Origin: a bacterium
GTDB lineage: Bacteria; Bacteroidota; Ignavibacteria; UBA10030
Length of the DNA: 64,000 nucleotides
NCBI GenBank assembly: GCA_043803945.1
Contig: JAZDJN010000056.1
Location: 1 to 64,000 of the forward strand
Direction: 5' to 3'
Below are positions 1 to 39,117 of the stretch, piece by piece. Each line of letters starts with the position of its first letter. The first letter of the stretch is position 1. The notes beneath the pieces were generated by a model. That model made no database searches, had not been told where the DNA came from, and saw only the letters and a list, made by a program, of their open reading frames with translations. Made by a program: the position numbers and the translations under genes.

Positions 1-1590
<1,590 letters not shown>

Positions 1591-1772
1591 TGTTACTGAT
1601 ATTAGTGCAATTATATCATAGTACATTGCTTCCTCAAACGCTCACGTATCTATGTCAAAGAACATTTTACTTAAGGAAGCGAAATAGTAACGTATTTATC
1701 CAAAATTCGAAGCGCTAACCCCCTATGCTTTTCATGTGCGCTCCGCTTAGCGCCCATCAGAAATTTGATGGG
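1591..1772 (-). promoter_or_regulatory. CRISPR leader with candidate promoter and inverted-repeat motif
   Basis: AT-rich region between the cas2 stop and the first repeat. The minus strand has TTGAGG-N16-TATAAT with a TG extension (TGATATAAT, 1610-1618). Inverted repeat GCGCTAA (1712-1718) / TTAGCGC (1747-1753). Confidence 0.75.
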
Positions 1773-2063
1773 CTACACAATAAGAGTGTCATCGACATTC
1801 TTGACAGCACCAGAACCATGATGCTCAACCCGGCGATGCCAGTTGGAGCCAAGATAATAGAACCGCAGGCTATCTTCTTCTGCCTTATATTTCGATAACA
1901 ATTTGTCTTTCAACGTTTCCCATTGTGCCGGATCAACATTGCACTCATACACTGAGTTTTGAACACGCAAACCATAATCAAGACAGATTTCTGAAATCTT
2001 CCTCAATCGCATAACACCGGCAGGTGTCTTTGTTGAAACGTCATAACTTACAAGAACCATCAT
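1773..2063 (-). CDS. cas2: CRISPR-associated endonuclease Cas2 (96 aa)
   Basis: MMVLVSYDV, GLRVQNSVYEC and DSLRFYYLG motifs; position after cas1. Start trimmed to MMVLV. Confidence 0.97.
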   Translation of the reverse strand: MMVLVSYDVSTKTPAGVMRLRKISEICLDYGLRVQNSVYECNVDPAQWETLKDKLLSKYKAEEDSLRFYYLGSNWHRRVEHHGSGAVKNVDDTLIV

Positions 2064-2142
2064 ATACCGTATTCCATAGTTATGTTTGGGGGATCCCATT
2101 TACCGATGTATCAGTTAGCAATATCTCCCAGGCAGAAGCGTC

Positions 2143-3174
2143 CTATGATTTCATATAAAAAGGAGGATACTCTGATAAATCTCCACGAATATACCTCGCC
2201 AATAATTGAGCCTGTATATGAGGAAGCAATCCTATTGTCATCTTTTCGCCAAGAAAGGGATGCGTAATTTCTTCTTGCTTCCGCTTTTGATATGCCGAAA
2301 TCACGGTCTTCCTTGTTTCATCAGACATTTGTACTTCACCCGATTCACGGATCTCGAAATCCTTTTTCGTTACCTGGTTCAGGTTGATGAGATTCAGCAT
2401 GATCCGATCGCCAAGATATGCACGGAACTCTTCCATAAGATCGAGAGCTAAACTGGGTCTTCCCGATCTCAGTTGGTGAAGAAAACCCACCTGCGGATCG
2501 AGTCCGGTCGTTTCAAGTGCTGACCGCACATCATTTGCAAGAATCGCATAGAGAAACGAAAGAAGCGCATTCGCCGGGTCGAGCGGTGGACGTTTTGATC
2601 GATGCGTGAATATAAAATCCTCCTGTTGCGAGACGATAAGCGAGGAAAATACATTGAAGTAGACATTGGCACATTCACCCTCATACCCGCGGAGCCCGTC
2701 AAGCGTTATCGCCTTCTGAATATCTGCCAATCGATTTCCCAGGACAGTCGCAGCAGACTCAACCGAATCGGTAGCAGAATCCGGATGATTACGCTGATGA
2801 CGAAGAAGAAGGTTTCGATAATTTGCGACCTTTGCCGCAACGATCGGACGCGCAATGGCGAGTGATTCCATTTCGTTATCAGCAATGGCGTACTGAGCCT
2901 TTCGCAACAGTACATTCCCCTGTTGCGCTCCATACACCCGTGCGAGGAATTTTCCTGTCTCCGAAAGGTAACTGACCCCAACGTTATTCTCCGCACAGAA
3001 TGCCATCAATTGGGGAGATAAGGCCTTGAATCCGAAACAGACGATATTTTCAATAGAATGCACTGGAGCCTGAAACACTTTTTTGTGATCTATTTCCACA
3101 ACGAATGTCTCGCGTTCCTTATGAACATACGCATCATCGGAAGTGATGTAAAGAGTATTCAAATGTTTTTTCAT
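2143..3174 (-). CDS. cas1: Type I-C Cas1 (343 aa)
   Basis: MKKHLNTLY start, LRGYEG, NALLSFLY, GFLH, SLALDLMEEFR motifs. Confidence 0.98.
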   Translation of the reverse strand: MKKHLNTLYITSDDAYVHKERETFVVEIDHKKVFQAPVHSIENIVCFGFKALSPQLMAFCAENNVGVSYLSETGKFLARVYGAQQGNVLLRKAQYAIADNEMESLAIARPIVAAKVANYRNLLLRHQRNHPDSATDSVESAATVLGNRLADIQKAITLDGLRGYEGECANVYFNVFSSLIVSQQEDFIFTHRSKRPPLDPANALLSFLYAILANDVRSALETTGLDPQVGFLHQLRSGRPSLALDLMEEFRAYLGDRIMLNLINLNQVTKKDFEIRESGEVQMSDETRKTVISAYQKRKQEEITHPFLGEKMTIGLLPHIQAQLLARYIRGDLSEYPPFYMKS

Positions 3175-3189
3175 GTGAATATTTCTTTG

Positions 3190-3276
3190 GTAGGACACAC
3201 ATTCTTGTGTGTCTCTCTACGCGTTGTGTGTTTTCCATGTGTGTTCAAGTAGGACATTCAAGAATGAATGTCCTAC
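3190..3276. repeat. Inverted REP doublet (REPIN-like) between RAYT and cas1
   Basis: GTAG-GACACACA-TTCT-TGTGTGTC (+, 3190-3213) and GTAG-GACATTCA-TTCT-TGAATGTCC (-, 3252-3276). The GTAG of the second copy supplies the RAYT TAG stop codon. Confidence 0.9.
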
Positions 3277-3749
3277 CCGCATTTGTCTTCATTATAATAC
3301 CACCCGGCATAGTTTTCCGGATTTTCTGTTAATCCTTTTTTCACTGGATTGTTGTACATATAATTCAACTTCTCGTCGAATTCATTTCCATCCCGCACAA
3401 TTCTATCGAACGACTCTTTCTGCCAGATCACTCCTTTAGCGTTTCGGTATTGGTTGATCTTATGCGCGCTCACACCTTTTATACCGTGCATAATTCTGCT
3501 TAAAGTAACTCCTTCCTTTGGCTTTAAAAGCAAATGCACATGATCCGGCATCACTATGACAGCATAGCAGGTGTAGAACTTTCCATCCCCTTCTTTAATA
3601 TGATCAAGAACGATGCGCTGTTCATTCCTATCAAACATCGTCTCGTACGCACAAAATGTCACAAAGTAGATGGAACCATCGATTGTCCAATGTGGCAAAT
3701 GCCGCCGCGTTATTTTCAATTCTTCTGACATATGTTTTTGTATGGACAT
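3273..3749 (-). mobile_element. REP-associated tyrosine transposase (RAYT/TnpA-REP, Y1 HUH family), apparently intact
   Basis: RRHLPHW, YFVTF, HUH motif MPDHVHLL, IWQKESFDRIVR and catalytic YMYNNPVKKGL. Flanked by REPs. The start may instead be the second Met at 3731. Confidence 0.93.
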
Positions 3750-3768
3750 TCAAGAATGAATGTCCTAC
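3744..3768 (-). repeat. REP hairpin, identical to the copies at 3252-3276 and 5706-5730
   Basis: GGACATTCAAGAATGAATGTCCTAC on the plus strand; begins 7 nt after the cas4 stop. Confidence 0.92.
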
Positions 3769-3775
3769 CGGTTAC

Positions 3776-4402
3776 CTATTGTAAATATAACTCTTTCATA
3801 TACTGATTTAACTTCTTTTCATTCATCGCTTTCGGCATACAAATTTCTTCCAGAGAACAATTTCTACACTTTACATTATATCGTGCCGCCGGTACTTTCT
3901 TTTGCGAGACAATCTCATGCACGGCAGCGATGATTTCTTCTGTTTGTTTCCGTAACTCTGCATCAATCGACACTACATTTCTTCGTCGAATTTTACCATA
4001 GAAGAATGCCCCCTGCACTATGTTCGTATTCAACATTTCTTCCAAGCAGAGAACCTGGGCACATAATTGTGCTTTATCGCATATGTCTTCTTTCGGTTTG
4101 CCGGACTTAAATTCTACTGGCAATACATCTTCCTGTTCGTTCCTACCTTTATGAAACTCCACCACATCGCATCGTCCGACAATGCCAAGCCGGGTCGAGT
4201 GGATTCTTAGCCCGCGTACGGTTTTCAATGTGCCTCTTGTTTCGTACGTGTCGCTATCTACCTTTTCGTGGAGGATGTCGCCCCGAACGGTAAAGACGTT
4301 CTCATGCCATACATCCTCGACATGGATTAACGCGCATTGCCTGGGACAGTATACATAATGTTGAAGTGCACCGATATGGATGAAGTCGTCTTCGCTATAC
4401 AT
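3776..4402 (-). CDS. cas4: CRISPR-associated exonuclease Cas4 (208 aa)
   Basis: LQHYVYCPRQCAL, GRCDVVEF, PVEFKSG, AQLCAQ and C-terminal CRNCSLEEIC Fe-S cysteines. Confidence 0.97.
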   Translation of the reverse strand: MYSEDDFIHIGALQHYVYCPRQCALIHVEDVWHENVFTVRGDILHEKVDSDTYETRGTLKTVRGLRIHSTRLGIVGRCDVVEFHKGRNEQEDVLPVEFKSGKPKEDICDKAQLCAQVLCLEEMLNTNIVQGAFFYGKIRRRNVVSIDAELRKQTEEIIAAVHEIVSQKKVPAARYNVKCRNCSLEEICMPKAMNEKKLNQYMKELYLQ

Positions 4403-4415
4403 AAATATTTCTATG

Positions 4416-4439
4416 GTAGGGCACTCATTCCTGCATGTC
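4416..4439 (+). repeat. Degenerate REP of the GTAG-GAC...CATTCYTG family upstream of cas4
   Basis: GTAGGGCACTCATTCCTGCATGTC: same GTAG foot and loop, imperfect stem. Confidence 0.65.
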
Positions 4440-4510
4440 TATTCGATGCTGTCCCAGAAGCCTTCTTTTGAAGCTCTGGGTGTGAAATAATATATGAGTT
4501 TCATAAGCCT

Positions 4511-4539
4511 TGTTGGTCGAGAAGCCTGCTCGACCAACA
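4511..4539. repeat. Second-family REP-like palindrome
   Basis: TGTTGGTCGAG-AAGCCTG-CTCGACCAACA, closely related to GTTGGTCGGGCAGTCTGCCCGACCAAC at 13256-13282 next to the second RAYT. Confidence 0.8.
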
Positions 4540-4693
4540 TTCTGGACGCCTCGCCCGATAGTTCCGATGAACATTAGGCATTATACTTCCCCCATGAGCA
4601 GGTTCGAGCTTCAGTTATCGACAACTCATTTCCGCTCGATTCATCTTCTCTGCTTTTTAGATGATAGCAATAGGTGACATCGCTAATGTGACT

Positions 4694-4777
4694 TACGTAA
4701 ATCAATTTGCATTGTCTCGGGCAAAACACGTAATGCTGCAATGCGATGAGCTGTATGTAATCGTCTTCGGTGAACAT
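4694..4777 (-). pseudogene. cas4: 5' remnant (about 28 codons) of a second cas4
   Basis: MFTEDDYIQLIALQHYVFCPRQCKLIYV matches the start of intact Cas4 at 19/28 residues, then similarity stops. Starts 6 nt after the cas7 stop. Confidence 0.85.
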
Positions 4778-4783
4778 GAGTTG

Positions 4784-5641
4784 TCAGAGCTTCTCGTCGA
4801 GTGCAATTCCCTTCGGTATGTTGCCTTTGTTAATTGTGACTTCATAATCACCCCACGCGCGGGGAAGCTCAACGTCTTTTTTCTTTTCAACATTCACGCG
4901 TTCAAATAATTCTCCTGCGCGGGCATTGCCGAGATGGCTTTCGTGTTTGAACACGATAAGTTTTCGCGGATTCATTTCGCCACGGGCAGCAGAGCGGTCG
5001 TGCTCAAACGCATTAAGCAAGGATTCCCAAAGTAATGTGAGATCATCTTCAGAAAAACCGGTTTTCGCTGCATCCACCGCAGAGACAAATCCGTGCATTG
5101 TGTAAAGGCCATAAGGGACTGTTGATTTGCGTCCCATTGTAGAAGCATATTCCCGACCTTCTTGTTTTTTTGCTTCTTCCGGTGTTGTTACGGCACAACG
5201 TGTTATTGTATGCTCAGCTTGATAGATTCGATCCTCGGAACGTGAAAAAGTAAATTGTATTGGTCCTTTTACTGTTCCCGCCCCTTGTTTTCCAACAGAA
5301 AGAACTGCACCAAAAGCTCGAATATCCCAATATTGTTCACACAAGCTCTTCTTCCTGTCTTCTATTTCTTCTCCTTTTTCATCATCTATAATTTTACCCA
5401 AAACATTCCCTTGCCTAATAAAAATTGCATGCTTACTCTTTTCAGCTGCTGTTGCTTTATCGAATTTTAGCTCAACATAGTTTCTGACTTTTCGCTTAAT
5501 ACAGACATCCGTTACAAGTCCTTCTTGATTCTCCGCGTCAACGCGGGGTAGATTGTCCTGATCAGGATCGCCGTTAGGGTTGCCGTCTTTTACATCGAAC
5601 AAGAAGACAAAGTCATAGCGGTTCTTAATTACGTTACTCAT
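4784..5641 (-). CDS. cas7: Type I-C Cas7 (Csd2)
   Basis: NRYDFVFLFDVKDGNPNGDPD, VTDVCIKRKVRNY, DIRAFGAV, TMGRK, FEHDRSAARGEM. Confidence 0.98.
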   Translation of the reverse strand: MSNVIKNRYDFVFLFDVKDGNPNGDPDQDNLPRVDAENQEGLVTDVCIKRKVRNYVELKFDKATAAEKSKHAIFIRQGNVLGKIIDDEKGEEIEDRKKSLCEQYWDIRAFGAVLSVGKQGAGTVKGPIQFTFSRSEDRIYQAEHTITRCAVTTPEEAKKQEGREYASTMGRKSTVPYGLYTMHGFVSAVDAAKTGFSEDDLTLLWESLLNAFEHDRSAARGEMNPRKLIVFKHESHLGNARAGELFERVNVEKKKDVELPRAWGDYEVTINKGNIPKGIALDEKL

Positions 5642-5669
5642 TGTATGTTCTCCTTTTATAATTTTGTTT

Positions 5670-5730
5670 GTAGGATAGACATTCCTGTCTGTCCTTTTTT
5701 AGCATGGACATTCAAGAATGAATGTCCTAC
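5670..5730. repeat. Inverted REP doublet between cas8c and cas7
   Basis: GTAG-GATAGACA-TTCC-TGTCTGTCC (+, 5670-5694) and GTAG-GACATTCA-TTCT-TGAATGTCC (-, 5706-5730). Confidence 0.9.
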
Positions 5731-5737
5731 CCATTGG

Positions 5738-6103
5738 TTACTTTGCAAAATCATGCTGCCGTTGATGATAATATCCAATGGCAAAGCTCGCCTGATCTTC
5801 TAACGAAAATGTAACAGGGAAGCGTGAACCTTCAACATTGCACATCAGTTCTTGCAGTTGTTTATCAAGATTGACAGAAAGTCCCGGTTTCTCTCCGCGT
5901 ATCTTCGATAAATGATGCTGTGAGAGTTTCATTAATCTTCCAAATGCCGTTGAAGGCGTGGTCGAAGCAGACGAGAAAAACCGTTCTCGTATGCCTGCGT
6001 TGAGGTTGCCGCCCGATGCATGATATTGGATTGATTCCAAAACGGCAAATAACCGTCCGCATATGTAGGCAATGTTTTTATTCGATTCATCGAGTATCGA
6101 CAT
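5738..6103 (-). CDS. cas11: Cas11c small subunit translated from an internal in-frame start in cas8c (121 aa)
   Basis: Internal AAAGGAGG (6114-6121) lies 10 nt before the ATG of MSILDESNKNIAYICGRLFAVLE. Internal Cas11 translation is established for type I-C. Confidence 0.8.
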   Translation of the reverse strand: MSILDESNKNIAYICGRLFAVLESIQYHASGGNLNAGIRERFFSSASTTPSTAFGRLMKLSQHHLSKIRGEKPGLSVNLDKQLQELMCNVEGSRFPVTFSLEDQASFAIGYYHQRQHDFAK

Positions 6104-7552
6104 ATACTTGGTTCCTCCTTTATGATTATTGTTTCGATTTAAAATGAATTTTAAAAGTGCAATTCTCTCGGATAAAACAATCTCCCAATGAGACATCACT
6201 TTACCCTTATCTGGTTTTGCGCTTTGTTCTGCTCTAATGCGGTTTAACACGGCACTGAGAAGCCAGAGTGGTGGTGTAGCGCCAAGTACGGCACATTTCC
6301 AGAGTGCTGCACCGATTCTTCCATATTGAACATCGTTTCCACTCTTGCTTTTAACGCTTGACACGAGGCTGTAAAATCGTGGGAACTGCGTAACGATTTT
6401 TTTACCGTCCTTGTTGTATTCTCCTATTGAGACACTCTCAAACCAGTTTGCCAAATTGGCTCGTAGATTAGGGAGGCTTGTCTCGATCCAATCACGCACT
6501 GCAATGCGCGCTGCTGCACCGCTTAGTGTGATTGCGTAAAACTTATCGATCATTGCTTTCTTCTTCTCCACAAGCGTTGCTTGGCCTGATTCAATAGATT
6601 TTATCATCTCTCGAATTTTACCTTCGTTAGGTGGTTCATCAAGCCAGCCGAGTTCCTCACTTTGTATGGAATCACGGAGCCAAAAAACGGCAGCGGTATC
6701 TTCAGAAATTCTCTGACGATTACTGTAACTATAATAATCTTTTCCGTCTTTGGTTTTCTTTTTTGTACCGGTGGAGAGTAGCCAATTCAAAGCATCAACA
6801 TATGCTTTCGCACAATGTGTACATATAAGAGAATTGTCGTTTCCCTCAAGACCGTATGATGAAAAAACATCACCCTCAAAGGAAACGAGGTAATTACCTG
6901 TTGAATTAGGATTTGGAACGCTTCGTATAGTTCCATGAGTTGAAATATCTCGTACTCGATATTCTGATGACCCGCAACATGAACATTTTTCCTTATTGGC
7001 TCCTATGAGTGCCTTTTCCTTCTCATCATACTTCTGTTTTATTGCTTCGTATAGTGATTTGTCTTTGTGAAGAACAACATCTCTGTGTCCCTTGGTCTGG
7101 ATTACGAAACCAAAGTTTGTACCTTCTTTTAGTTCTTTCGTATTTATTTTGGATTGAAAGTCTTTACGGGCTGCTTTTAATTCCTTTTTATTTTCATAAA
7201 AGGCGAGAAGTGATTTAATGCCTGTAACTTTCTGATAGTCTCTCAGTTTTATTTGATATGCTTCAAGACATTCTTTTGTCCTCTTGGTTTCAGGGAATCC
7301 CAATACATACTTAGCGTTATCTACAACTAGACGCGCTAGGACATTACTAGTCCTTCCGGCGTTTTCGGTCCTTACGAGATCTTCAACGACCGTCATGCCT
7401 TTTTCTGTTGGAATGATGCCGTTGTATTTACCCGTTTTTGTTATATATATGTACGCATCAAGTCTTTCTTTACATAGAGCGTCATGAACGAGGCTCTTGT
7501 CTATTTCATCCTTCCTAATCCTCTCAGATAAAAGAACAAGTTCTTGTATCAT
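5738..7552 (-). CDS. cas8c: Type I-C large subunit Cas8c (Csd1)
   Basis: FSSYGL, LSGAAARIAVRDW, AYICGRLFAVLE and FAIGYYHQ motifs; lies between cas5c and cas7. Confidence 0.95.
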   Translation of the reverse strand: MIQELVLLSERIRKDEIDKSLVHDALCKERLDAYIYITKTGKYNGIIPTEKGMTVVEDLVRTENAGRTSNVLARLVVDNAKYVLGFPETKRTKECLEAYQIKLRDYQKVTGIKSLLAFYENKKELKAARKDFQSKINTKELKEGTNFGFVIQTKGHRDVVLHKDKSLYEAIKQKYDEKEKALIGANKEKCSCCGSSEYRVRDISTHGTIRSVPNPNSTGNYLVSFEGDVFSSYGLEGNDNSLICTHCAKAYVDALNWLLSTGTKKKTKDGKDYYSYSNRQRISEDTAAVFWLRDSIQSEELGWLDEPPNEGKIREMIKSIESGQATLVEKKKAMIDKFYAITLSGAAARIAVRDWIETSLPNLRANLANWFESVSIGEYNKDGKKIVTQFPRFYSLVSSVKSKSGNDVQYGRIGAALWKCAVLGATPPLWLLSAVLNRIRAEQSAKPDKGKVMSHWEIVLSERIALLKFILNRNNNHKGGTKYMSILDESNKNIAYICGRLFAVLESIQYHASGGNLNAGIRERFFSSASTTPSTAFGRLMKLSQHHLSKIRGEKPGLSVNLDKQLQELMCNVEGSRFPVTFSLEDQASFAIGYYHQRQHDFAK

Positions 7553-8262
7553 AATTCCTCCTTATCCGCAACTTCTTCAGCAAGATTGAATTCATGAATC
7601 AGTTGCCTTGGATACGTTGCTATCTCACCTTGAATGTGTTTGCTTGTAAGTATTTGTTTGTACGCCTCACTGCAATCCAAAACACCATTCCGAACGGCTA
7701 CATCATAAAAGAATTTTGGCATTGGTACACCGTTCTCGTCATACCACATATCAAGGAACATACTGCCGATAGGAATTTCTTCTTGTATGGGCCTGTCATT
7801 TTCTGACACGGGTAAAAACTCTGCTGCAAACTCACGTGTCCCTAAGAATGGACGTCGCCAGCATTGCCCCTTGCGTAATCTCCGGTTGAACATCTCAACG
7901 TATTTCTTTGGAGGATTCTTTCCATCAGGCACGGATTGAAAGACCGATGCTTCGATGATGTATCCAACATCTTTGAGCACAATGCTATTACGTTGAGTAC
8001 GATTTTCTTCGATAATAATCGGCGTCTTTCCCTGTCTGGCATTGATTTCGTTGCGCTTTACCGAATGGAATTTCACCTGCTCAAGAACGCTGATCCTATG
8101 AACATGCCACGCGAACTCTGGTTTCCAGAGAATGCAATCTAATACCCCCCGCGCCGCCGAGGGAGTCATACAAGGATAGGTCATTCGTTCAACCTTAAGG
8201 TCAGGGCGGGTGAAGCAGGCAAACTCACCCGTTACTTTTACCCGAACAGAATTGTCATTCAT
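7549..8262 (-). CDS. cas5c: Type I-C Cas5c (Cas5d)
   Basis: ACFTRPDLKVERMTYPCMTPSAARG, WKPE, PFLGTREF; AGGAGG RBS before ATG 8262. Confidence 0.97.
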   Translation of the reverse strand: MNDNSVRVKVTGEFACFTRPDLKVERMTYPCMTPSAARGVLDCILWKPEFAWHVHRISVLEQVKFHSVKRNEINARQGKTPIIIEENRTQRNSIVLKDVGYIIEASVFQSVPDGKNPPKKYVEMFNRRLRKGQCWRRPFLGTREFAAEFLPVSENDRPIQEEIPIGSMFLDMWYDENGVPMPKFFYDVAVRNGVLDCSEAYKQILTSKHIQGEIATYPRQLIHEFNLAEEVADKEEL

Positions 8263-8293
8263 GATTCCTCCTTTTTTATAAAATAATGGTTTG

Positions 8294-8353
8294 GTGGGAC
8301 ACACATTCTTGTGTGTCGTTCATGACATGGTCAACCAAGAATGGTTAACCCAC
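8294..8353. repeat. Inverted REP doublet (GTGG foot) between cas3 and cas5c
   Basis: GTGG-GACACACA-TTCT-TGTGTGTC (+, 8294-8317) and GTGG-GTTAACCA-TTCT-TGGTTGACC (-, 8329-8353). Confidence 0.88.
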
Positions 8354-8358
8354 CATAG

Positions 8359-10539
8359 TTAAAACACTGTCTCAACATCTTCCGGTGCAAGTCCGATACT
8401 GTCATTGTAAGTTCCATGCCAGATGTGCAGCGAATCTTTGAAATGTTCAATCTGGTTTGAATACTTCACCAAGAAAGGGTTGTACACCTGCACGCTGAAC
8501 TGCTGCAATTTTCTGTAATGTTCTCTTTTCATCAATAAGCTGTTTTCAATTTCTTTAAGCAATAACCTACTTTCTTCTGAGTAATCTTTAATGAACAACG
8601 ATACAGTCGGTGAATCAATGAGTCTGAAGTTCTCAGCAACAGTTTTAAAATTACCCTTTTCCCTGTTTTCCGTAATATTATATTTGTCGGTATCAATAAA
8701 AAGATTTGTTAATTCTTCATAGTATTGCTCAAATGAGTCTGCTCTATGTAAAAGCTCTGGATCGTGTTTTATCATTCCTAATGCCCTATCAGCGCACGCT
8801 TTATATGTTGTATCGGGCATTTTTTGGTGTTCAAGATTAAATAGTACAACACGCCCTTTTTTTAATACGCCATTTCGGTTGCACCTACCAGCAGCTTGAA
8901 TTACTGCATCCATTGGAGCGATAGCACGATACACACACGGAAAATCGAGATCAACACCAGCCTCAACCAATTGCGTTGAGAATACCGCTATTCTTTTTCT
9001 GCTTTGAAGATCTGCAATAATATTATCGATGGTTTTCTTGCGGTGATGTGGACACATTGCAGTGGAGAGATGGTAATATTGTTCATGAATGCCAGATTTT
9101 GAAATGAACTGGTATAATTCCCTTGTGACAGCTTTTGTGTTGGCTATAACAAGAAACGACCCGGTTTCCTTTGAGAGTGTATCTGTCAATAAGTCAAAAG
9201 AGACCTCATTAAGATTCTTCATCAATTTGTAGTTCACTCTTTGCGTTGCCTTGAAATATTTCTGCGGTTTTGTTATCAGAGGTTGAATAGTATCTATACC
9301 CTCAAATCCTTCTCGCTTCTGGAATGCCGGCTGTGTTGCAGTGCAGAACAGGAATGATGTTCGTGCCAATTCAACAATATTCTTGAGCATCACAACGATG
9401 GGTTCAGCATACTGTTTCGGCAATGTTTGTACTTCATCGAAGATAACGACCGATTCCGCAATGTTGTGGTTCTTCCTACACTTGAACGGGCGATTACTAA
9501 AAAGCGACTCAAAAAATTGCACGGATGTCGTCACGATGATCGGCGCATCCCAATTTTCGCAAGCAAGCCGTTTTGACAAGTCCGAGCCTGTGCCCACAGC
9601 ATTCTCATCATACTTGTCGTTATCCTTGTCCTCTTCTATTATTCCGGAATGATGTTCAAGGACAACGTCGTCTCCAAATACATTCTTTAAAATCTTTGAT
9701 GTCTGGTCGATGATGTTTATGAAAGGAAGAACAATAATAATGCGCTTCAATTTATGATGTCGGGCGTGTAATAGAGCCCAATACATTGATATCAACGTTT
9801 TTCCTAATCCAGTTGGGAGTTGAAGTGAGAAAAATCCGACAGGAGCGTCATATCGTTTCACTGTTTCATTGCGCGCTTTTGTGCGAAGTGAATTAATGGT
9901 ATCTGTCGAATGTCCCACAATGAGTTTCTTTTGTAATTCCGTAAATATCTTTTCGAGAGCATCAATGAAAACGTCATAATCAAGCGTAGACCTTATTCGT
10001 GCGTTTGTCTTTTCCAGATTGAAATGGTGTTCGGTATCCAACCAATCCGCATCCGTCAGTGCACTGAATAAAAATCGCGTTACACACTCGACATGTAGCT
10101 TATCTTTATCGATGAGGCTATTTGCTTCGCCGAAGGATGTTTCTGCTTCAGGAAAACTTTCATAGAAACGCCTTTTCACTTCCTGGATATTATTTGTATC
10201 GTCTTCAAGTATTTCAAATGCAGAAACAAGTTCTTCTTTATCTGGCATTCCTGCATGATGACCTTTGATTGCGAATGGTAATGGAATGAATTGTTTTGCA
10301 ACTGTTCGAGCAAGGAATGCCCCAATGCCTGCATGCGGTGTTTTCGGTTTTCCCGTAGCTAAGTAACTCTGAAACCCATCCTGAAACTTGCCGACATCGT
10401 GCAAGAGTCCTGCAAGAAAAAACAAATGCCGGAGTTCATCCGAAGGAGCAAAAGAGAGTGTAAGTTCTGCCGTGCGCTCAAGATGTTCCTTTAAACTGTG
10501 CTTCTCACTCTTGTTATTTTCCGAATGAGCGTAGAACAT
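8359..10539 (-). CDS. cas3: Cas3 HD nuclease/helicase
   Basis: FYAHS, LLHDVGK (HD), HH, DAD, LPTGLGKT, DEVQ, TATQP, STQLVEAGVDLDF, QAAGRCNR. Confidence 0.98.
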   Translation of the reverse strand: MFYAHSENNKSEKHSLKEHLERTAELTLSFAPSDELRHLFFLAGLLHDVGKFQDGFQSYLATGKPKTPHAGIGAFLARTVAKQFIPLPFAIKGHHAGMPDKEELVSAFEILEDDTNNIQEVKRRFYESFPEAETSFGEANSLIDKDKLHVECVTRFLFSALTDADWLDTEHHFNLEKTNARIRSTLDYDVFIDALEKIFTELQKKLIVGHSTDTINSLRTKARNETVKRYDAPVGFFSLQLPTGLGKTLISMYWALLHARHHKLKRIIIVLPFINIIDQTSKILKNVFGDDVVLEHHSGIIEEDKDNDKYDENAVGTGSDLSKRLACENWDAPIIVTTSVQFFESLFSNRPFKCRKNHNIAESVVIFDEVQTLPKQYAEPIVVMLKNIVELARTSFLFCTATQPAFQKREGFEGIDTIQPLITKPQKYFKATQRVNYKLMKNLNEVSFDLLTDTLSKETGSFLVIANTKAVTRELYQFISKSGIHEQYYHLSTAMCPHHRKKTIDNIIADLQSRKRIAVFSTQLVEAGVDLDFPCVYRAIAPMDAVIQAAGRCNRNGVLKKGRVVLFNLEHQKMPDTTYKACADRALGMIKHDPELLHRADSFEQYYEELTNLFIDTDKYNITENREKGNFKTVAENFRLIDSPTVSLFIKDYSEESRLLLKEIENSLLMKREHYRKLQQFSVQVYNPFLVKYSNQIEHFKDSLHIWHGTYNDSIGLAPEDVETVF

Positions 10540-10620
10540 CTGAATCCCTCCTGATCAGATTATAATCCCGATTGATCCTTTTAAGAATCCATACACATCA
10601 TCCGCTTTATTCTTTCCTTT

Positions 10621-10651
10621 GGACGGGAAAGCTTCCCGTCCGACAGTGCTT
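10621..10651 (-). repeat. Third-family REP-like hairpin, copy 1
   Basis: GGACGGGAAAGCTTCCCGTCCGACAGTGCTT; 29/31 identical to 11300-11330. Confidence 0.85.
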
Positions 10652-10783
10652 TATTTTTAGAGAATGCATGCTTGGTACATCATCATCACATCCAGATCTG
10701 CCCCTTCTCTCAGAAAAGCGGAGTAATGGTAATGGAACATCGATGGAAGATGCTATCAACAACGAGCTTTCGATCTCTGCTGT

Positions 10784-11260
10784 TCATAGCTCTATTTCCG
10801 TCGAAGCAACCGTCAAGTGTCGTTGACCACCGGTACATGACAGTGTATAGTCTGCAATCAATCTCCGATTCTCCGGAAAATGTGTCTGCTTCCGTTGCAG
10901 GAGCATTTCAATAATTGCCCTGGTTTCCCCGGGATCATCTTTACCCGTTGCTTCGATGAGCTCTTGCATCTGAACGGCTTGCCCCTCCGGTGGAATCAAT
11001 GAGAGATTCCACACGGCGATAGAAAATGTCAGCGCAAGCTCGTATGCTGCATCATTGGGAGCGCTGTTCAAGAGCGGCGCTGCAAAGTGCAGCAGCACCT
11101 CAGACATCTTTTCCATTCCGGGAGGCCTCGTCCCGATCCGAACACCCTTCCAGAGACCCGATGAAGCAAGGTTCTTCAGTATCTGTGTTTTCGGACCGCT
11201 TGTGTTTCCCGAATAACCATGTTTTTTCTGCTTCTTGTGTTTTTTGTGTTTACGGCTCAT
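10784..11260 (-). CDS. Hypothetical protein (158 aa) with Lys/His-rich N-terminus
   Basis: Clean ORF with an AGGT RBS-like site; no family recognised. Confidence 0.7.
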   Translation of the reverse strand: MSRKHKKHKKQKKHGYSGNTSGPKTQILKNLASSGLWKGVRIGTRPPGMEKMSEVLLHFAAPLLNSAPNDAAYELALTFSIAVWNLSLIPPEGQAVQMQELIEATGKDDPGETRAIIEMLLQRKQTHFPENRRLIADYTLSCTGGQRHLTVASTEIEL

Positions 11261-12803: not shown

Positions 12804-13240
12804 TCAGCATACACCATTTATGATTCCTTCTGCACAATAGGTCCACGGCCATTGGTCCCAGGACTCAACAAGTCGTGCCTTCACTGGATTATTCAGCACA
12901 TACCAAACGGTGCGTTCAAGTTCATCGCTGTCTCGGATAACATGATCATAGCTTTCATCCTGCCAGAATGCGCCATGACGGTGGAGAAGTTTGTTTGCCT
13001 TGAGTGCGGTATTCCATTTCAGCTTCCGCAATATTTCTGTTACTGTCGTTTATCTTGTTCATTCTTGATTTCAGCGAATTTGCGGTCTAATTCTTCTCGT
13101 TCTTCTCCCATCCGTTTGAAAACCTCCGCTGGCAGCAATCCTTTCAAACGAAACACTACGTGATAGCTGGCTCCCAATGGCTGATAGTGCGGTAGATGAC
13201 GACGATAGTATATGGTGTTTTTCTCTATGGTTATTTGCTC
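12804..13240 (-). pseudogene. Second RAYT, broken: stop codon, frame change and loss of the HUH segment
   Basis: The N-part YYRRHLPHYQP...YHVVFRL ends at a stop (13040). The C-part FWQDESYDHVIRD...YVLNNPVKARL is in another frame. No MPxHVH motif is present between them. Confidence 0.85.
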
Positions 13241-13255
13241 GCGTAGTATTGCCCT

Positions 13256-13282
13256 GTTGGTCGGGCAGTCTGCCCGACCAAC
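13256..13282. repeat. Perfect 27-bp REP-like palindrome upstream of the broken RAYT
   Basis: GTTGGTCGGGCAG-T-CTGCCCGACCAAC. Confidence 0.85.
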
Positions 13283-37848: not shown

Positions 37849-39117
37849 TTATTGCGTTGTAAAGTGCCAGAGCGGACCTGAAAGCGTATCCTTCTCTGTA
37901 ATTTCATTCACCCGCCAGTAATAAGTCGTTTTACTCTCAAGGATCCCTGTATTGAACACCGTTTGTTGTTGATTGCCTTGAAATTCAGGATTGGTACTTT
38001 TTCCGAAATAGACATTGTGCGATACTGCATTTCGTGTCGCTACCCATTGCAGCAGAGAATTCTCGGCCGGTATTCGATACGATCCATCACGCGGCTTCGG
38101 CTGGAACACATAGGGCAGAACAGCGGGCATCGTTCCTTCCGGATCCCACTTCCCTGCAAATGTCCATTTTGCTGTGATGTCACTTTCTTTCGGCGAGCCC
38201 TCAGCCGTCGAGAGATTATCCCGAAACCAATCGTAGTCCCCGCCTTCCCGATGACAATTATAATAGTAGTGGCGCTCGCCCCATTTCCAGGTCCGGGCGT
38301 TGGGCGATACGGGAAGATAAATCTGCCGGTCGGCCATCGATCGGGAGAAGATGCAATCGAGAAGATAGGTCTGGCCATCCCGGTGATGCCGGCCCAGCGG
38401 AAAGTTTGGAACTCCGTCGAAACTCGAATACCGGATCACAAATTTCTGATCCTTGTCATAGCCACCATCATGCCAGAGTGAGGCACTGAGGTTGTGGCCG
38501 AAAAATTTACTGTCGGTAATGTAGCACCATCCGCGCGGACAGACATAATCGACCCACCCTTCAAAGGAACAATCGGCATGGTAGTACATTCCCGTCTCTT
38601 TGTCCCATAAACTTACCGTGTCACCTCCATCCGCAATGACCGTGCAGGCAAGAATGATGATACGCGTGCCTTCGCCGCGGATAGCAAATTGGTGCTCCGC
38701 GGTGTTATGGAGCGATCCATAGTTATTATGGATTGTGAGGTTCGCAAGGATGAGATCGGTGACAGTTGAATCGATGTTGACTGTTGCCGATCCCCAATCG
38801 CTTCCGTTCTGTGCCGCAATCCAGTTCTTCCGGAGCTCCGGGAAGACAATCCGTGTGCTGTCGCGGCTCTCGCCGACAAGTGTGACATAACTTTTTTGAA
38901 TGAACAGCTTTTCCTGATAGAGGCCATTCTTTATGAGGATGATGATTGGGGATGCATTACTTGCCGGGATCGAGTTCAGAGCATCCTGGATAGACCGGTA
39001 GTGGCCGCTGCCGTCCTGGGCAACAATAATATGAGCACGCTCTCCGGTCGATCCGAAGACCAGCAGAGGAAGTAAAACAAGAAGCTGCAAATATTTTTTT
39101 AGGACAACCTTTATCAC
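37849..39117 (-). CDS. Pectin methylesterase (CE8) with C-terminal Fn3-like module
   Basis: VAQDGSG, GGDTVSLW, VDYVCPRG, LGRHH; tail YYWRVNE...WHFTT. Confidence 0.88.
   Translation of the reverse strand: MIKVVLKKYLQLLVLLPLLVFGSTGERAHIIVAQDGSGHYRSIQDALNSIPASNASPIIILIKNGLYQEKLFIQKSYVTLVGESRDSTRIVFPELRKNWIAAQNGSDWGSATVNIDSTVTDLILANLTIHNNYGSLHNTAEHQFAIRGEGTRIIILACTVIADGGDTVSLWDKETGMYYHADCSFEGWVDYVCPRGWCYITDSKFFGHNLSASLWHDGGYDKDQKFVIRYSSFDGVPNFPLGRHHRDGQTYLLDCIFSRSMADRQIYLPVSPNARTWKWGERHYYYNCHREGGDYDWFRDNLSTAEGSPKESDITAKWTFAGKWDPEGTMPAVLPYVFQPKPRDGSYRIPAENSLLQWVATRNAVSHNVYFGKSTNPEFQGNQQQTVFNTGILESKTTYYWRVNEITEKDTLSGPLWHFTTQ

Follow-up and report, generated by a model that had tools for sequence, protein, structure and literature searches.

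Short palindromic hairpins occupy gaps between genes of a type I-C cas operon at one end of the stretch of DNA analysed here (the window: 64,000 nt of contig JAZDJN010000056.1, assembly GCA_043803945.1, class Ignavibacteria). These hairpins are probably GTAG- or GTGG-footed repetitive extragenic palindromes (REPs). They would belong to a REPtron with one cognate REP-associated tyrosine transposase (RAYT), encoded in the operon itself, between cas4 and cas1 and in the same orientation. Both the architecture of the repeats and their constant company with this transposase lineage point in this direction.

The hairpins and their cognate transposase

A 24-nt degenerate pattern, allowing up to two mismatches, matches the 64-kb window exactly eight times, and all matches lie at 3190–8353 at junctions of the cas genes, where a sequence-only reading of this DNA had placed eight copies of one family. 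The number expected was 0.08 ± 0.27, and none of 100 shuffled windows reached eight. Four copies are foot-first on each strand (Table 1), and a repeat finder splits them into two sets of four, one for each orientation. The consensus is (G)GTRGG-ACA-NN-CA-TTCY-TG-NN-TGT-C, with a GTAG foot in six of the eight and a GTGG foot in two. An 8-bp stem carries a 4-nt loop; all eight pairs form in seven copies, and six of eight in the copy preceding cas4 (4416). The stems were aligned together with two further copies from contig C54 of the same genome. Among these ten, G5, T6, G8, and G9 are invariant, 97.5% of the alignment cells are paired, and three of the eight pairs are altered on both sides. The covariation score of 0.447, as against 0.135 in shuffles, was reached in none of 500 shuffles, and shifting the partner column by one to three positions as a control lowered pairing to 26–41%. 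The earlier claim that the stems differ yet stay paired is thus borne out, the hairpin structure being kept via compensatory changes.

Copies distant from the RAYT gene have stems identical to those beside it: GACATTCA is found at 3276, 3768, and 5730, and GACACACA at 3190 and 8294. The window has three doublets with the feet outside, and contig C54 has one more. Most copies belong to such inverted pairs, in which the two stems differ, a layout also known from bacterial interspersed mosaic elements (BIMEs) and REPINs. As RNA, the REPs give stable folds (z-scores −3.1 to −5.7), and in the cas3/cas5 doublet both feet also pair with each other. The gap from stop codon to GTRG is 5 nt after cas3, 7 nt after cas8c, and 7 nt after cas4, as had been stated for the sense copies (5–7 nt); indeed, the first description of the hairpins was right in every particular checked. 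The junctions cas5/cas8c, cas7/cas4', and cas1/cas2 of this operon are free of REPs. A search of the whole window against Rfam at gathering thresholds gave no match.

Judged by its sequence, the product of the Y1 open reading frame (ORF) between cas4 and cas1 is a RAYT. It scores 94.2 bits (cutoff 80) against the NCBIfam model REP_Tyr_transpos (NF047646) and 30.1 bits, below the cutoff of 55, against the IS200 model NF033573. Its sole match among solved structures is TnpA-REP of E. coli (PDB: 4ER8; E value 8e-4). Both the HUH motif (HVH) and the catalytic Tyr (YMYNNP; the YxxNPV tyrosine) are intact and align with 4ER8, and residues H64, H66, and Y124 are invariant in 15 RAYT orthologues. Purifying selection acts on the ORF, which is intact: its ratio of nonsynonymous to synonymous substitution rates (dN/dS) is 0.07–0.18. 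RAYT genes are typically under such selection.

The link between this enzyme and the repeats was examined in 277 genomes of the order, which contained 28 RAYT orthologue loci (48–100% identity) in 27 genomes. REPs of the present family lie within 1.5 kb of the RAYT in all 28 loci, their number ranging from 1 to 17 per locus within about 1.5 kb (at most two mismatches); in every genome examined they are clustered near their RAYT. In a metagenome sample made up of the best 80 loci, REPs are found beside nearly every RAYT with at least about 50% identity and beside almost none below. There is one RAYT match per genome in 26 of the 27 genomes and two in G257. The present genome (G000, a 5.54-Mb assembly of 118 contigs, the window lying on an 88-kb contig) has one copy of this lineage, and its other Y1 paralogues are at most 35% identical. 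The RAREFAN preprint describes RAYTs as single-copy and vertically inherited. A degraded RAYT-like pseudogene, 35% identical to the cas-embedded RAYT, is located at 12849–13204 (minus strand) of the window; it keeps an N-terminal RRHLPH-type and a C-terminal YVLNNPV-type piece, and the HUH region is gone. Several further Y1 paralogues in the genome show 21–31% identity.

If the RAYT works as its counterparts in E. coli and Stenotrophomonas do, this HUH/Tyr enzyme would bind a REP as a folded single strand, along with the GTAG foot 5' of it, and would then cut and rejoin nearby. REPs and doublets would thereby be copied, preferentially close to the RAYT, and the copies would survive in intergenic gaps only. 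Local copying and intergenic-only survival would make a compact operon look punctuated gene by gene, typically a few nt past the stops. Stem covariation would reflect recognition of the foot and the structure, not of the stem sequence, and would be uninformative on cas function. Within this order, type I-C operons would carry the RAYT and its REPs along with them and also pass them to one another. The cause of the pattern would be the REPtron, which the sequence-only reading had named in passing only. According to the 2013 survey (Di Nocera, PMC3733652), GTAG REPs in general show covarying stems, inverted doublets, and a location just after stop codons. That survey also describes doublets with feet outside or inside and with unlike stems, placement between co-directional ORFs near their 3' ends, and RAYT genes flanked or overlapped by REPs. 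REPtron biochemistry, including a cleavage and strand-transfer assay, is covered in a further source (PMC8266576), which also sets apart a group with short perfect palindromes that the present REPs resemble.

The host operon is a complete type I-C locus on the minus strand of window positions 1–10539, as established from Pfam and the ORF list. All seven Pfam families of the type (cas3, cas5c, cas8c/Csd1, cas7, cas4, cas1, and cas2) were found, together with an adjoining array, in the order cas3-cas5-cas8c-cas7-cas4-RAYT-cas1-cas2-array. The Pfam search took in ten ORFs at 1773–11260, nine of the operon and one upstream; it returned Cas families and Y1_Tnp only, two ORFs being without a match. 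The sense CRISPR repeat has the 3' end ...ATTGAAAC. The start of cas1 was taken as the ATG at 3172–3174, the listed ORF extending to a GTG at 3198, within a REP. The REP at 3253–3276 has a second foot opposite (3249–3252), which makes it fully palindromic, and the cas4' ORF is unrelated to cas4 beyond its first ~27 codons.

Table 1. Positions of the cas genes, the RAYT gene and the palindromes in the window
Feature	Position	Strand	Remarks
CRISPR array	1..1590	−	24 full 32-nt repeats at 45–1590 and a repeat cut by the window start
cas2	1773..2099	−	PF09827, E value 7e-24
cas1	2143..3174	−	PF01867, E value 2e-102
REP, stem GACACACA	3190..3213	+	inverted on the mRNA strand; ends 15 nt ahead of the cas1 ATG
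REP, stem GACATTCA	3253..3276	−	GTAG foot holds the RAYT stop codon TAG
RAYT	3273..3731	−	152 aa from Met 3729–3731
REP, stem GACATTCA	3745..3768	−	7 nt past the cas4 stop, just ahead of the RAYT start
cas4	3776..4402	−	PF01930, E value 6e-27
REP, degenerate	4416..4439	+	6/8 stem pairs; ends 13 nt ahead of the cas4 ATG
Second-family palindrome (GTTGGTCGAGCAG...CTCGACCAAC)	4520..4546		separate from the GTRG REP family, low-copy
cas4' remnant ORF	4574..4777	−	cas4 likeness only in the first ~27 codons (about 4697–4777)
cas7	4784..5641	−	PF05107, E value 7e-95
REP doublet, GTAG feet outside	5670..5730		cas8c/cas7 junction
REP, stem GATAGACA	5670..5693	+	28 nt ahead of the cas7 ATG
REP, stem GACATTCA	5707..5730	−	7 nt past the cas8c stop
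cas8c (Csd1)	5738..7552	−	PF09709, E value 1e-112
cas5	7549..8262	−	PF09704; ATG at 8260–8262
REP doublet, GTGG feet outside	8294..8353		cas3/cas5 junction
REP, stem GACACACA	8294..8317	+	31 nt ahead of the cas5 ATG
REP, stem GTTAACCA	8330..8353	−	5 nt past the cas3 stop
cas3 (HD nuclease and helicase)	8359..10539	−	Pfam

Copies elsewhere in the genome and in relatives

The sequence-only reading had found no copy in the other ~55 kb of the window, and a covariance model built from the ten copies likewise gave no further match on the 88-kb contig. Over the whole assembly the model, applied to 150 of 4676 first-look candidates, retrieved only those ten (38–46 bits; the next candidate reached 20.8 bits), and two exhaustive genome scans, one with a hairpin-aware script and one with a strict pattern, gave the identical ten copies. 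With eight of the ten within 5.2 kb, placement is strongly non-random, as had been proposed. The only doublet outside the cas locus lies on contig C54 at 38740–38804 (L001 8741–8805), between a DUF559 gene, whose ORF extends into the REP, and hsdM, in a type I restriction-modification (R-M) operon whose gene order is broken by DUF559, YhcG-nuclease, and ORF6N genes. The doublet has the stems GATAGGCA and GACAAACA, a pair that is more common than any other across G004, a related genome. The idea that REPs mark defence islands, given that all ten copies sit in cas and R-M operons, was dropped because the same doublets are present in the hydrogenase-maturation and pyruvate:ferredoxin oxidoreductase (PFOR) operons of G004.

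The genome also contains about seven copies of a second palindrome family, GT[AT]GGTCGRGCAG...CTGCYCGACC[AT]AC, at 4520–4546 and 13251–13277 of the window and on contigs C12, C95, C98, and C99. One of these copies lies in the gap ahead of cas4 and one adjoins the degraded RAYT-like gene.

The covariance model matches 22 of 61 related genomes, G000 counted. The strict pattern finds 10 copies in G000, 47 in G004, 17 in G020, 41 in G042, and 29 in G039, and a reversed-pattern control finds none in any of the five; in the relatives the copies are spread over many contigs. Doublets of G004, where feet-outside and feet-inside arrangements are found alike, also occur at hypD/hypE, radical-SAM/PFOR, and PFOR/DHODH (the dihydroorotate dehydrogenase gene). 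Of the 47 strict copies of this genome, 14 fall in the 15 kb surrounding its cas locus, where its RAYT lies as well. Since the REPs are dispersed and are present in housekeeping operons as well, the family is a generic intergenic REP and not specific to cas or to defence. On whether the family is equally dense elsewhere, then, the sequence-only reading is upheld by the present genome, where it is not, and contradicted by the relatives, where dispersal is genome-wide. The small number of copies in G000 most plausibly reflects arrival of the element with cas DNA. A 98-nt unit consisting of one REP and a different GC-rich hairpin is tandemly repeated 2.3 times upstream of cas3 in G004 (L014 3431–3660).

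Residence of the transposase in type I-C operons

Eight of the 28 RAYT orthologue loci are inside type I-C operons, and the other 20 have no cas gene within 1.5 kb. In the metagenome sample, RAYT loci in I-C operons number seven of 80, and six of the 17 contigs at ≥63% identity. Three or more junctions are used (cas4/cas1, cas7/cas4, and upstream of cas3), and in all cas-linked loci listed, from genomes and metagenomes alike, the RAYT has the orientation of the cas genes. Orthologues of Cas1 (70–88% identity) were found in 34 of the 277 genomes, and the 30 best loci, that of G000 included, were examined. A co-oriented RAYT stands between cas4 and cas1 in seven of them and upstream of cas4 in one (G027), a REP doublet alone occupies the cas4/cas1 junction in two (G132 and G039), and 20 have neither the RAYT nor these REPs. 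The operon of G044 is compact and REP-free. With 20 of 30 loci lacking it and the G044 operon devoid of REPs, the RAYT is dispensable for the cas module.

The cas4 and cas1 genes abut in 11 of the 30 loci, namely in ten of the 20 REP/RAYT-free loci and in G027, and this is taken as the ancestral state. Ten RAYT-less loci have a gap at this junction, and most of these gaps contain other hairpins or palindromes resembling miniature inverted-repeat transposable elements (MITEs); thus, the cas4/cas1 junction seems generally permissive to such insertions. The gaps of RAYT-less relatives (50–833 nt; L033, L034, L036, L040, L046, L042, L052, and L056) often contain such hairpins or nested, MITE-like palindromes, and that of L036 also holds an apparent decayed REP. 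Locus L067 (G016:C4:645000-660000) has a cas4-RAYT-cas1-cas2 module; the 10.6 kb upstream of it yielded no I-C effector genes, and another cas1-like match, a distant one (32% identity), is located 6 kb away.

In a tree of Cas1 DNA, five RAYT-bearing loci and the REP-only locus of G132 form one group (support 90/88), and G091, G260, and G027 are placed outside it. At least four changes are required to account for the seven RAYT loci at cas4/cas1, and five when G027 is added. In the RAYT tree, seven cas-embedded copies and four copies away from cas genes form a clade with support 100/99, so that the RAYT is inside an I-C operon in seven of the 11 genomes of this clade. The RAYT of G260 belongs to another clade, yet it is also at cas4/cas1, and a single clade for all eight cas-embedded RAYTs is rejected by the approximately unbiased (AU) test (p = 1e-6).

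An empty and a filled site can be compared within one genus. Relative to G090, the cas4/cas1 junction of G091 holds a clean block of ~600 nt, in which the final ~35 nt of cas4 are followed by a REP, the RAYT, a further REP, and one inverted REP. Flanking sequence is 84–97% identical between the two operons, apart from a short stretch of divergence inside cas4 and the ~40 nt immediately preceding the insert. At the insertion, the stop-start overlap of cas4 and cas1 (ATGA in G090) gives way to about 600 nt. We found no report in the literature of a RAYT or of REPs inside cas operons; supplements, which may list such neighbours, were outside the search.

Alternative explanations and known systems

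Several points weigh against assignment of the hairpins to an ordinary, locally copying REPtron. The ten copies of G000 are confined to two loci, both of them defence operons, whereas classical REPs are high-copy and dispersed. Residence of the RAYT in I-C operons in eight of 28 loci, involving at least two lineages, is far more frequent than would be expected if a housekeeping-like RAYT were placed at random. Pure hitch-hiking may not be the whole story. Moreover, the synonymous divergence (dS) of the RAYT is 0.49–1.35, compared with ≥2.4 or saturation for the flanking cas4 and cas1, which fits movement between operons, whereas no evidence that tnpA-REP is mobile is given in the RAYT literature (PMC8266576). 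A sharp break in identity also coincides exactly with one of the doublets, as described below, and activity of the RAYT, its cutting sites, and local copying would hold by analogy with other systems. It is conceivable, and we suggest it tentatively, that one RAYT/REP lineage is resident in I-C operons, that its block moves between diverged operons as a mobile REPtron, and that the REPs contribute to patchwork recombination and to expression.

The closest whole operon is that of G091 (L068), a genome of another family of the order. Protein identities to G091 are 69% for cas3, 95% for cas5, 86% for cas8c, 78% for cas7, 80% for cas4, 81% for the RAYT, and 87% for cas1. The corresponding dS values, obtained by the Nei-Gojobori method and only qualitative above 1, are 1.70 (cas3), 0.22 (cas5), 0.46 (cas8c), 2.7 (cas7), 2.4 (cas4), and 0.49 (RAYT), with cas1 and cas2 saturated. 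These uneven values indicate that the histories of the cas genes are not congruent, as the sequence-only reading had anticipated; its further expectation, that the breakpoints would lie at REPs, was realised in only one of five cases. A sliding profile against G091 locates the other four inside genes, at ~9900 in cas3, at ~6820 and ~6060 in cas8c, and at ~5500 in cas7. The exception is a jump from 46–62% to 91–97% identity exactly at the cas3/cas5 doublet, a junction where G091 has no doublet and a gap of 18 nt. The cas8c/cas7 doublet, by comparison, is found in G091 with the same two stems and, as it lies within a recently shared block of 91–98% identity, was simply inherited. Within window positions 5500–8260, cas5 and parts of cas8c show 91–98% nucleotide identity to L068 beside neighbours saturated at synonymous sites, which indicates recent exchange of effector-module pieces between families. 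Compared with G004, the effector proteins are 28–46% identical and the cas4-RAYT-cas1-cas2 block 79–87%, which shows that modules were exchanged between cas7 and cas4, where 5' stubs of cas4 accumulate. Such partial copies of the first 40–80 nt of cas4, upstream of the full gene, are present in five RAYT-bearing loci (G000, G004, G118, G016, and G027), at window ~4697–4777, L014 9925–9993 and 11459–11500, L017 2889–2969 and 4099–4178, L019 714–756, and L022 584–682. In G004 the stubs bracket inserted genes, among them a BRO-N-like ORF, and RAYT-less loci give single cas4 hits, many with short flanks. The operon of origin of the cas4' stub (~80 nt) was not identifiable, as it is 72–88% identical to almost every cas4.

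The sequence-only reading had suggested that the REPs might be integron-like cassette boundaries. This was not sustained, given the canonical gene order, the inverted doublets, the REP-free junctions, and the single break of five at a doublet. G004, G044, and G091 share the gene order cas3-5-8c-7-4-1-2, every operon examined has the canonical order, and the ten Pfam-searched ORFs at 1773–11260 include no integron integrase, the flanks not having been searched specifically for IntI. A weaker form of the idea, in which REPs are exchange points and REP-bounded segments (cas5-cas8c, RAYT, cas4) were moved by RAYT strand transfer or by REP-stimulated recombination, could draw on the mosaic dS, the jump at the cas3/cas5 doublet, the contrast between effector and adaptation blocks against G004, and the duplicated cas4 stubs in five RAYT-bearing loci. 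We regard it as improbable, since four of the five breaks are intragenic, conserved sequence surrounds the cas8c/cas7 doublet on both sides, the cas3/cas5 junction of G091 is REP-free, gene order is invariant, and the differing piece of G091, by including the last ~35 nt of cas4, looks like ordinary recombination; furthermore, the profile rests on one operon pair. Support for REPs as exchange points is thus weak and from a single case at most, and a mosaic of this kind is what homologous recombination between related operons would be expected to produce.

Alternatively, the doublets might have been co-opted as RNA elements tuning expression within the polycistronic cas transcript, the hairpins lowering the output of cas3, cas8c, and cas4 or shielding upstream mRNA from 3' exonucleases and uncoupling cas1 from cas4. 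We consider this unlikely, although rather less so than exchange at REPs. All REPs of the window belong to one co-directional operon and fold stably as RNA, the sense copies follow three stop codons by 5–7 nt, the cas8c/cas7 doublet is kept in G091 with the same stems, and doublets are found before cas7 in G118 and after cas3 in G004. Liang, Rudd and Deutscher (2015) reportedly found translation to be lowered where a REP lies no more than about 15 nt from a stop codon. Junction occupancy varies among close relatives, however, which argues against a fixed, selected layout: G091 has no cas3/cas5 doublet, and G004 has none at cas8c/cas7 and one at cas1/cas2. Operons of type I-C that are free of REPs also exist (G044, and 20 of the 30 cas1 loci), and the shared cas8c/cas7 doublet is explained by descent of the 91–98% block. 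According to the 2013 survey, REPs are generally held to act on mRNA, but by the same account nearness to upstream stops is a generic REP pattern (PMC3733652). As intrinsic terminators the REPs were rejected, as no sense-strand (minus) terminator-like site coincides with any of them (both strands together have 13 such sites, compared with 8.2 ± 3.1 in shuffles). A scan for sigma-70-type promoters found 19 sites with 20.9 expected, although this consensus may not fit the promoters of the phylum. The idea that the hairpins are Cas5c substrates was likewise set aside, there being no ATTGAAAC handle at 1600–10600, i.e., in the operon outside the array. Effects of the REPs on the stability or translation of cas mRNA are, by analogy, likely in kind, and hairpins in polycistronic cas mRNA that replace the ancestral cas4/cas1 overlap probably change expression; any such role would be the generic one of REPs rather than a new one.

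Least probable, and in our view very unlikely indeed, is that the RAYT serves the adaptation module as a functional accessory, an HUH single-strand nuclease acting with Cas4-Cas1-Cas2, and that the REPs are by-products. The RAYT does stand, co-oriented, at cas4/cas1 in seven of the 30 cas1 loci and elsewhere in I-C operons in G027 and several metagenome contigs, and its intact ORF, dN/dS of 0.07–0.18, and invariant catalytic residues would suit an active enzyme. Against this, 20 of 30 closely related modules have no RAYT, 20 of 28 orthologues have no cas gene within 1.5 kb, and REPs flank all 28, as in REPtrons generally. Where the RAYT lies in an operon also varies (cas4/cas1, cas7/cas4, or upstream of cas3), and purifying selection is the norm for RAYTs.

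The REPtron explanation agrees best with what is known of the Group-3-type REPtrons of Stenotrophomonas maltophilia and Marinomonas and the REPIN/RAYT systems of Pseudomonas. They share with the present elements a short perfect palindrome after GTAG, inverted doublets, one RAYT flanked (here overlapped) by REPs, compensatory stem change, and dispersed intergenic copies, which are here found in relatives. The present elements differ in their Ignavibacteriota host, in their low copy number (10, and 17–47 in relatives by the strict pattern), and in the RAYT lying in an I-C cas operon in eight of 28 loci with signs of movement of its block. In the 2013 survey (Di Nocera, PMC3733652), the taxa given for GTAG repeats are Proteobacteria, Cyanobacteria, Chloroflexi, and the Planctomycetes-Verrucomicrobia-Chlamydiae group only, so that the elements are of the known GTAG REP/RAYT class in a phylum outside that list.

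The REPs and bacterial interspersed mosaic elements of E. coli, with TnpA-REP (4ER8), likewise have a GTAG foot, doublets of unlike REPs, co-directional placement after stops, and alignable HUH/Tyr motifs. They are longer, and a stem bulge is required for their activity (PMC8266576), whereas the present stems are mostly perfect over 8 bp; the protein similarity is weak (E value 8e-4), and E. coli REPs occur in hundreds of copies. With IS200/IS605 elements the present system has in common a Y1 HUH transposase, a site that is empty in one species and filled in another of the same genus, and RAYT-flanking REPs that both point the same way on the coding strand, as left-end and right-end hairpins do. 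Unlike these elements, it falls below the cutoff of the IS200 model and above that of the RAYT model, has no TnpB, has hairpins dispersed alone as doublets, and shows no conserved target motif evident at the left end in five loci. Integron attC sites are also imperfect palindromes, folding as single strands, between consecutive genes; there, however, each cassette has one oriented site, whereas here the doublets are inverted, several junctions are empty, I-C gene order and content are fixed, and no integrase was found among the ten Pfam-searched ORFs.

An attractive new mechanism, integron-like cas cassettes, thus gives way to a known class of elements. The new part is the recurrent residence of a RAYT lineage in I-C operons, with hints of movement of the RAYT block. 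RAYTs have been described as immobile and housekeeping-like; here one lineage is found in a horizontally exchanged defence operon in several genera, the RAYT is younger at synonymous sites than its neighbours, and empty and filled sites exist within one genus. A caution for annotators follows: arrays of hairpins within cas loci are not necessarily CRISPR-related RNAs. The finding is of moderate interest for REP/RAYT biology and for CRISPR evolution: if the association holds, the movement of REPtrons could be studied here in a natural setting, and the effect of REPs on recombination or expression of the cas operon could be tested.

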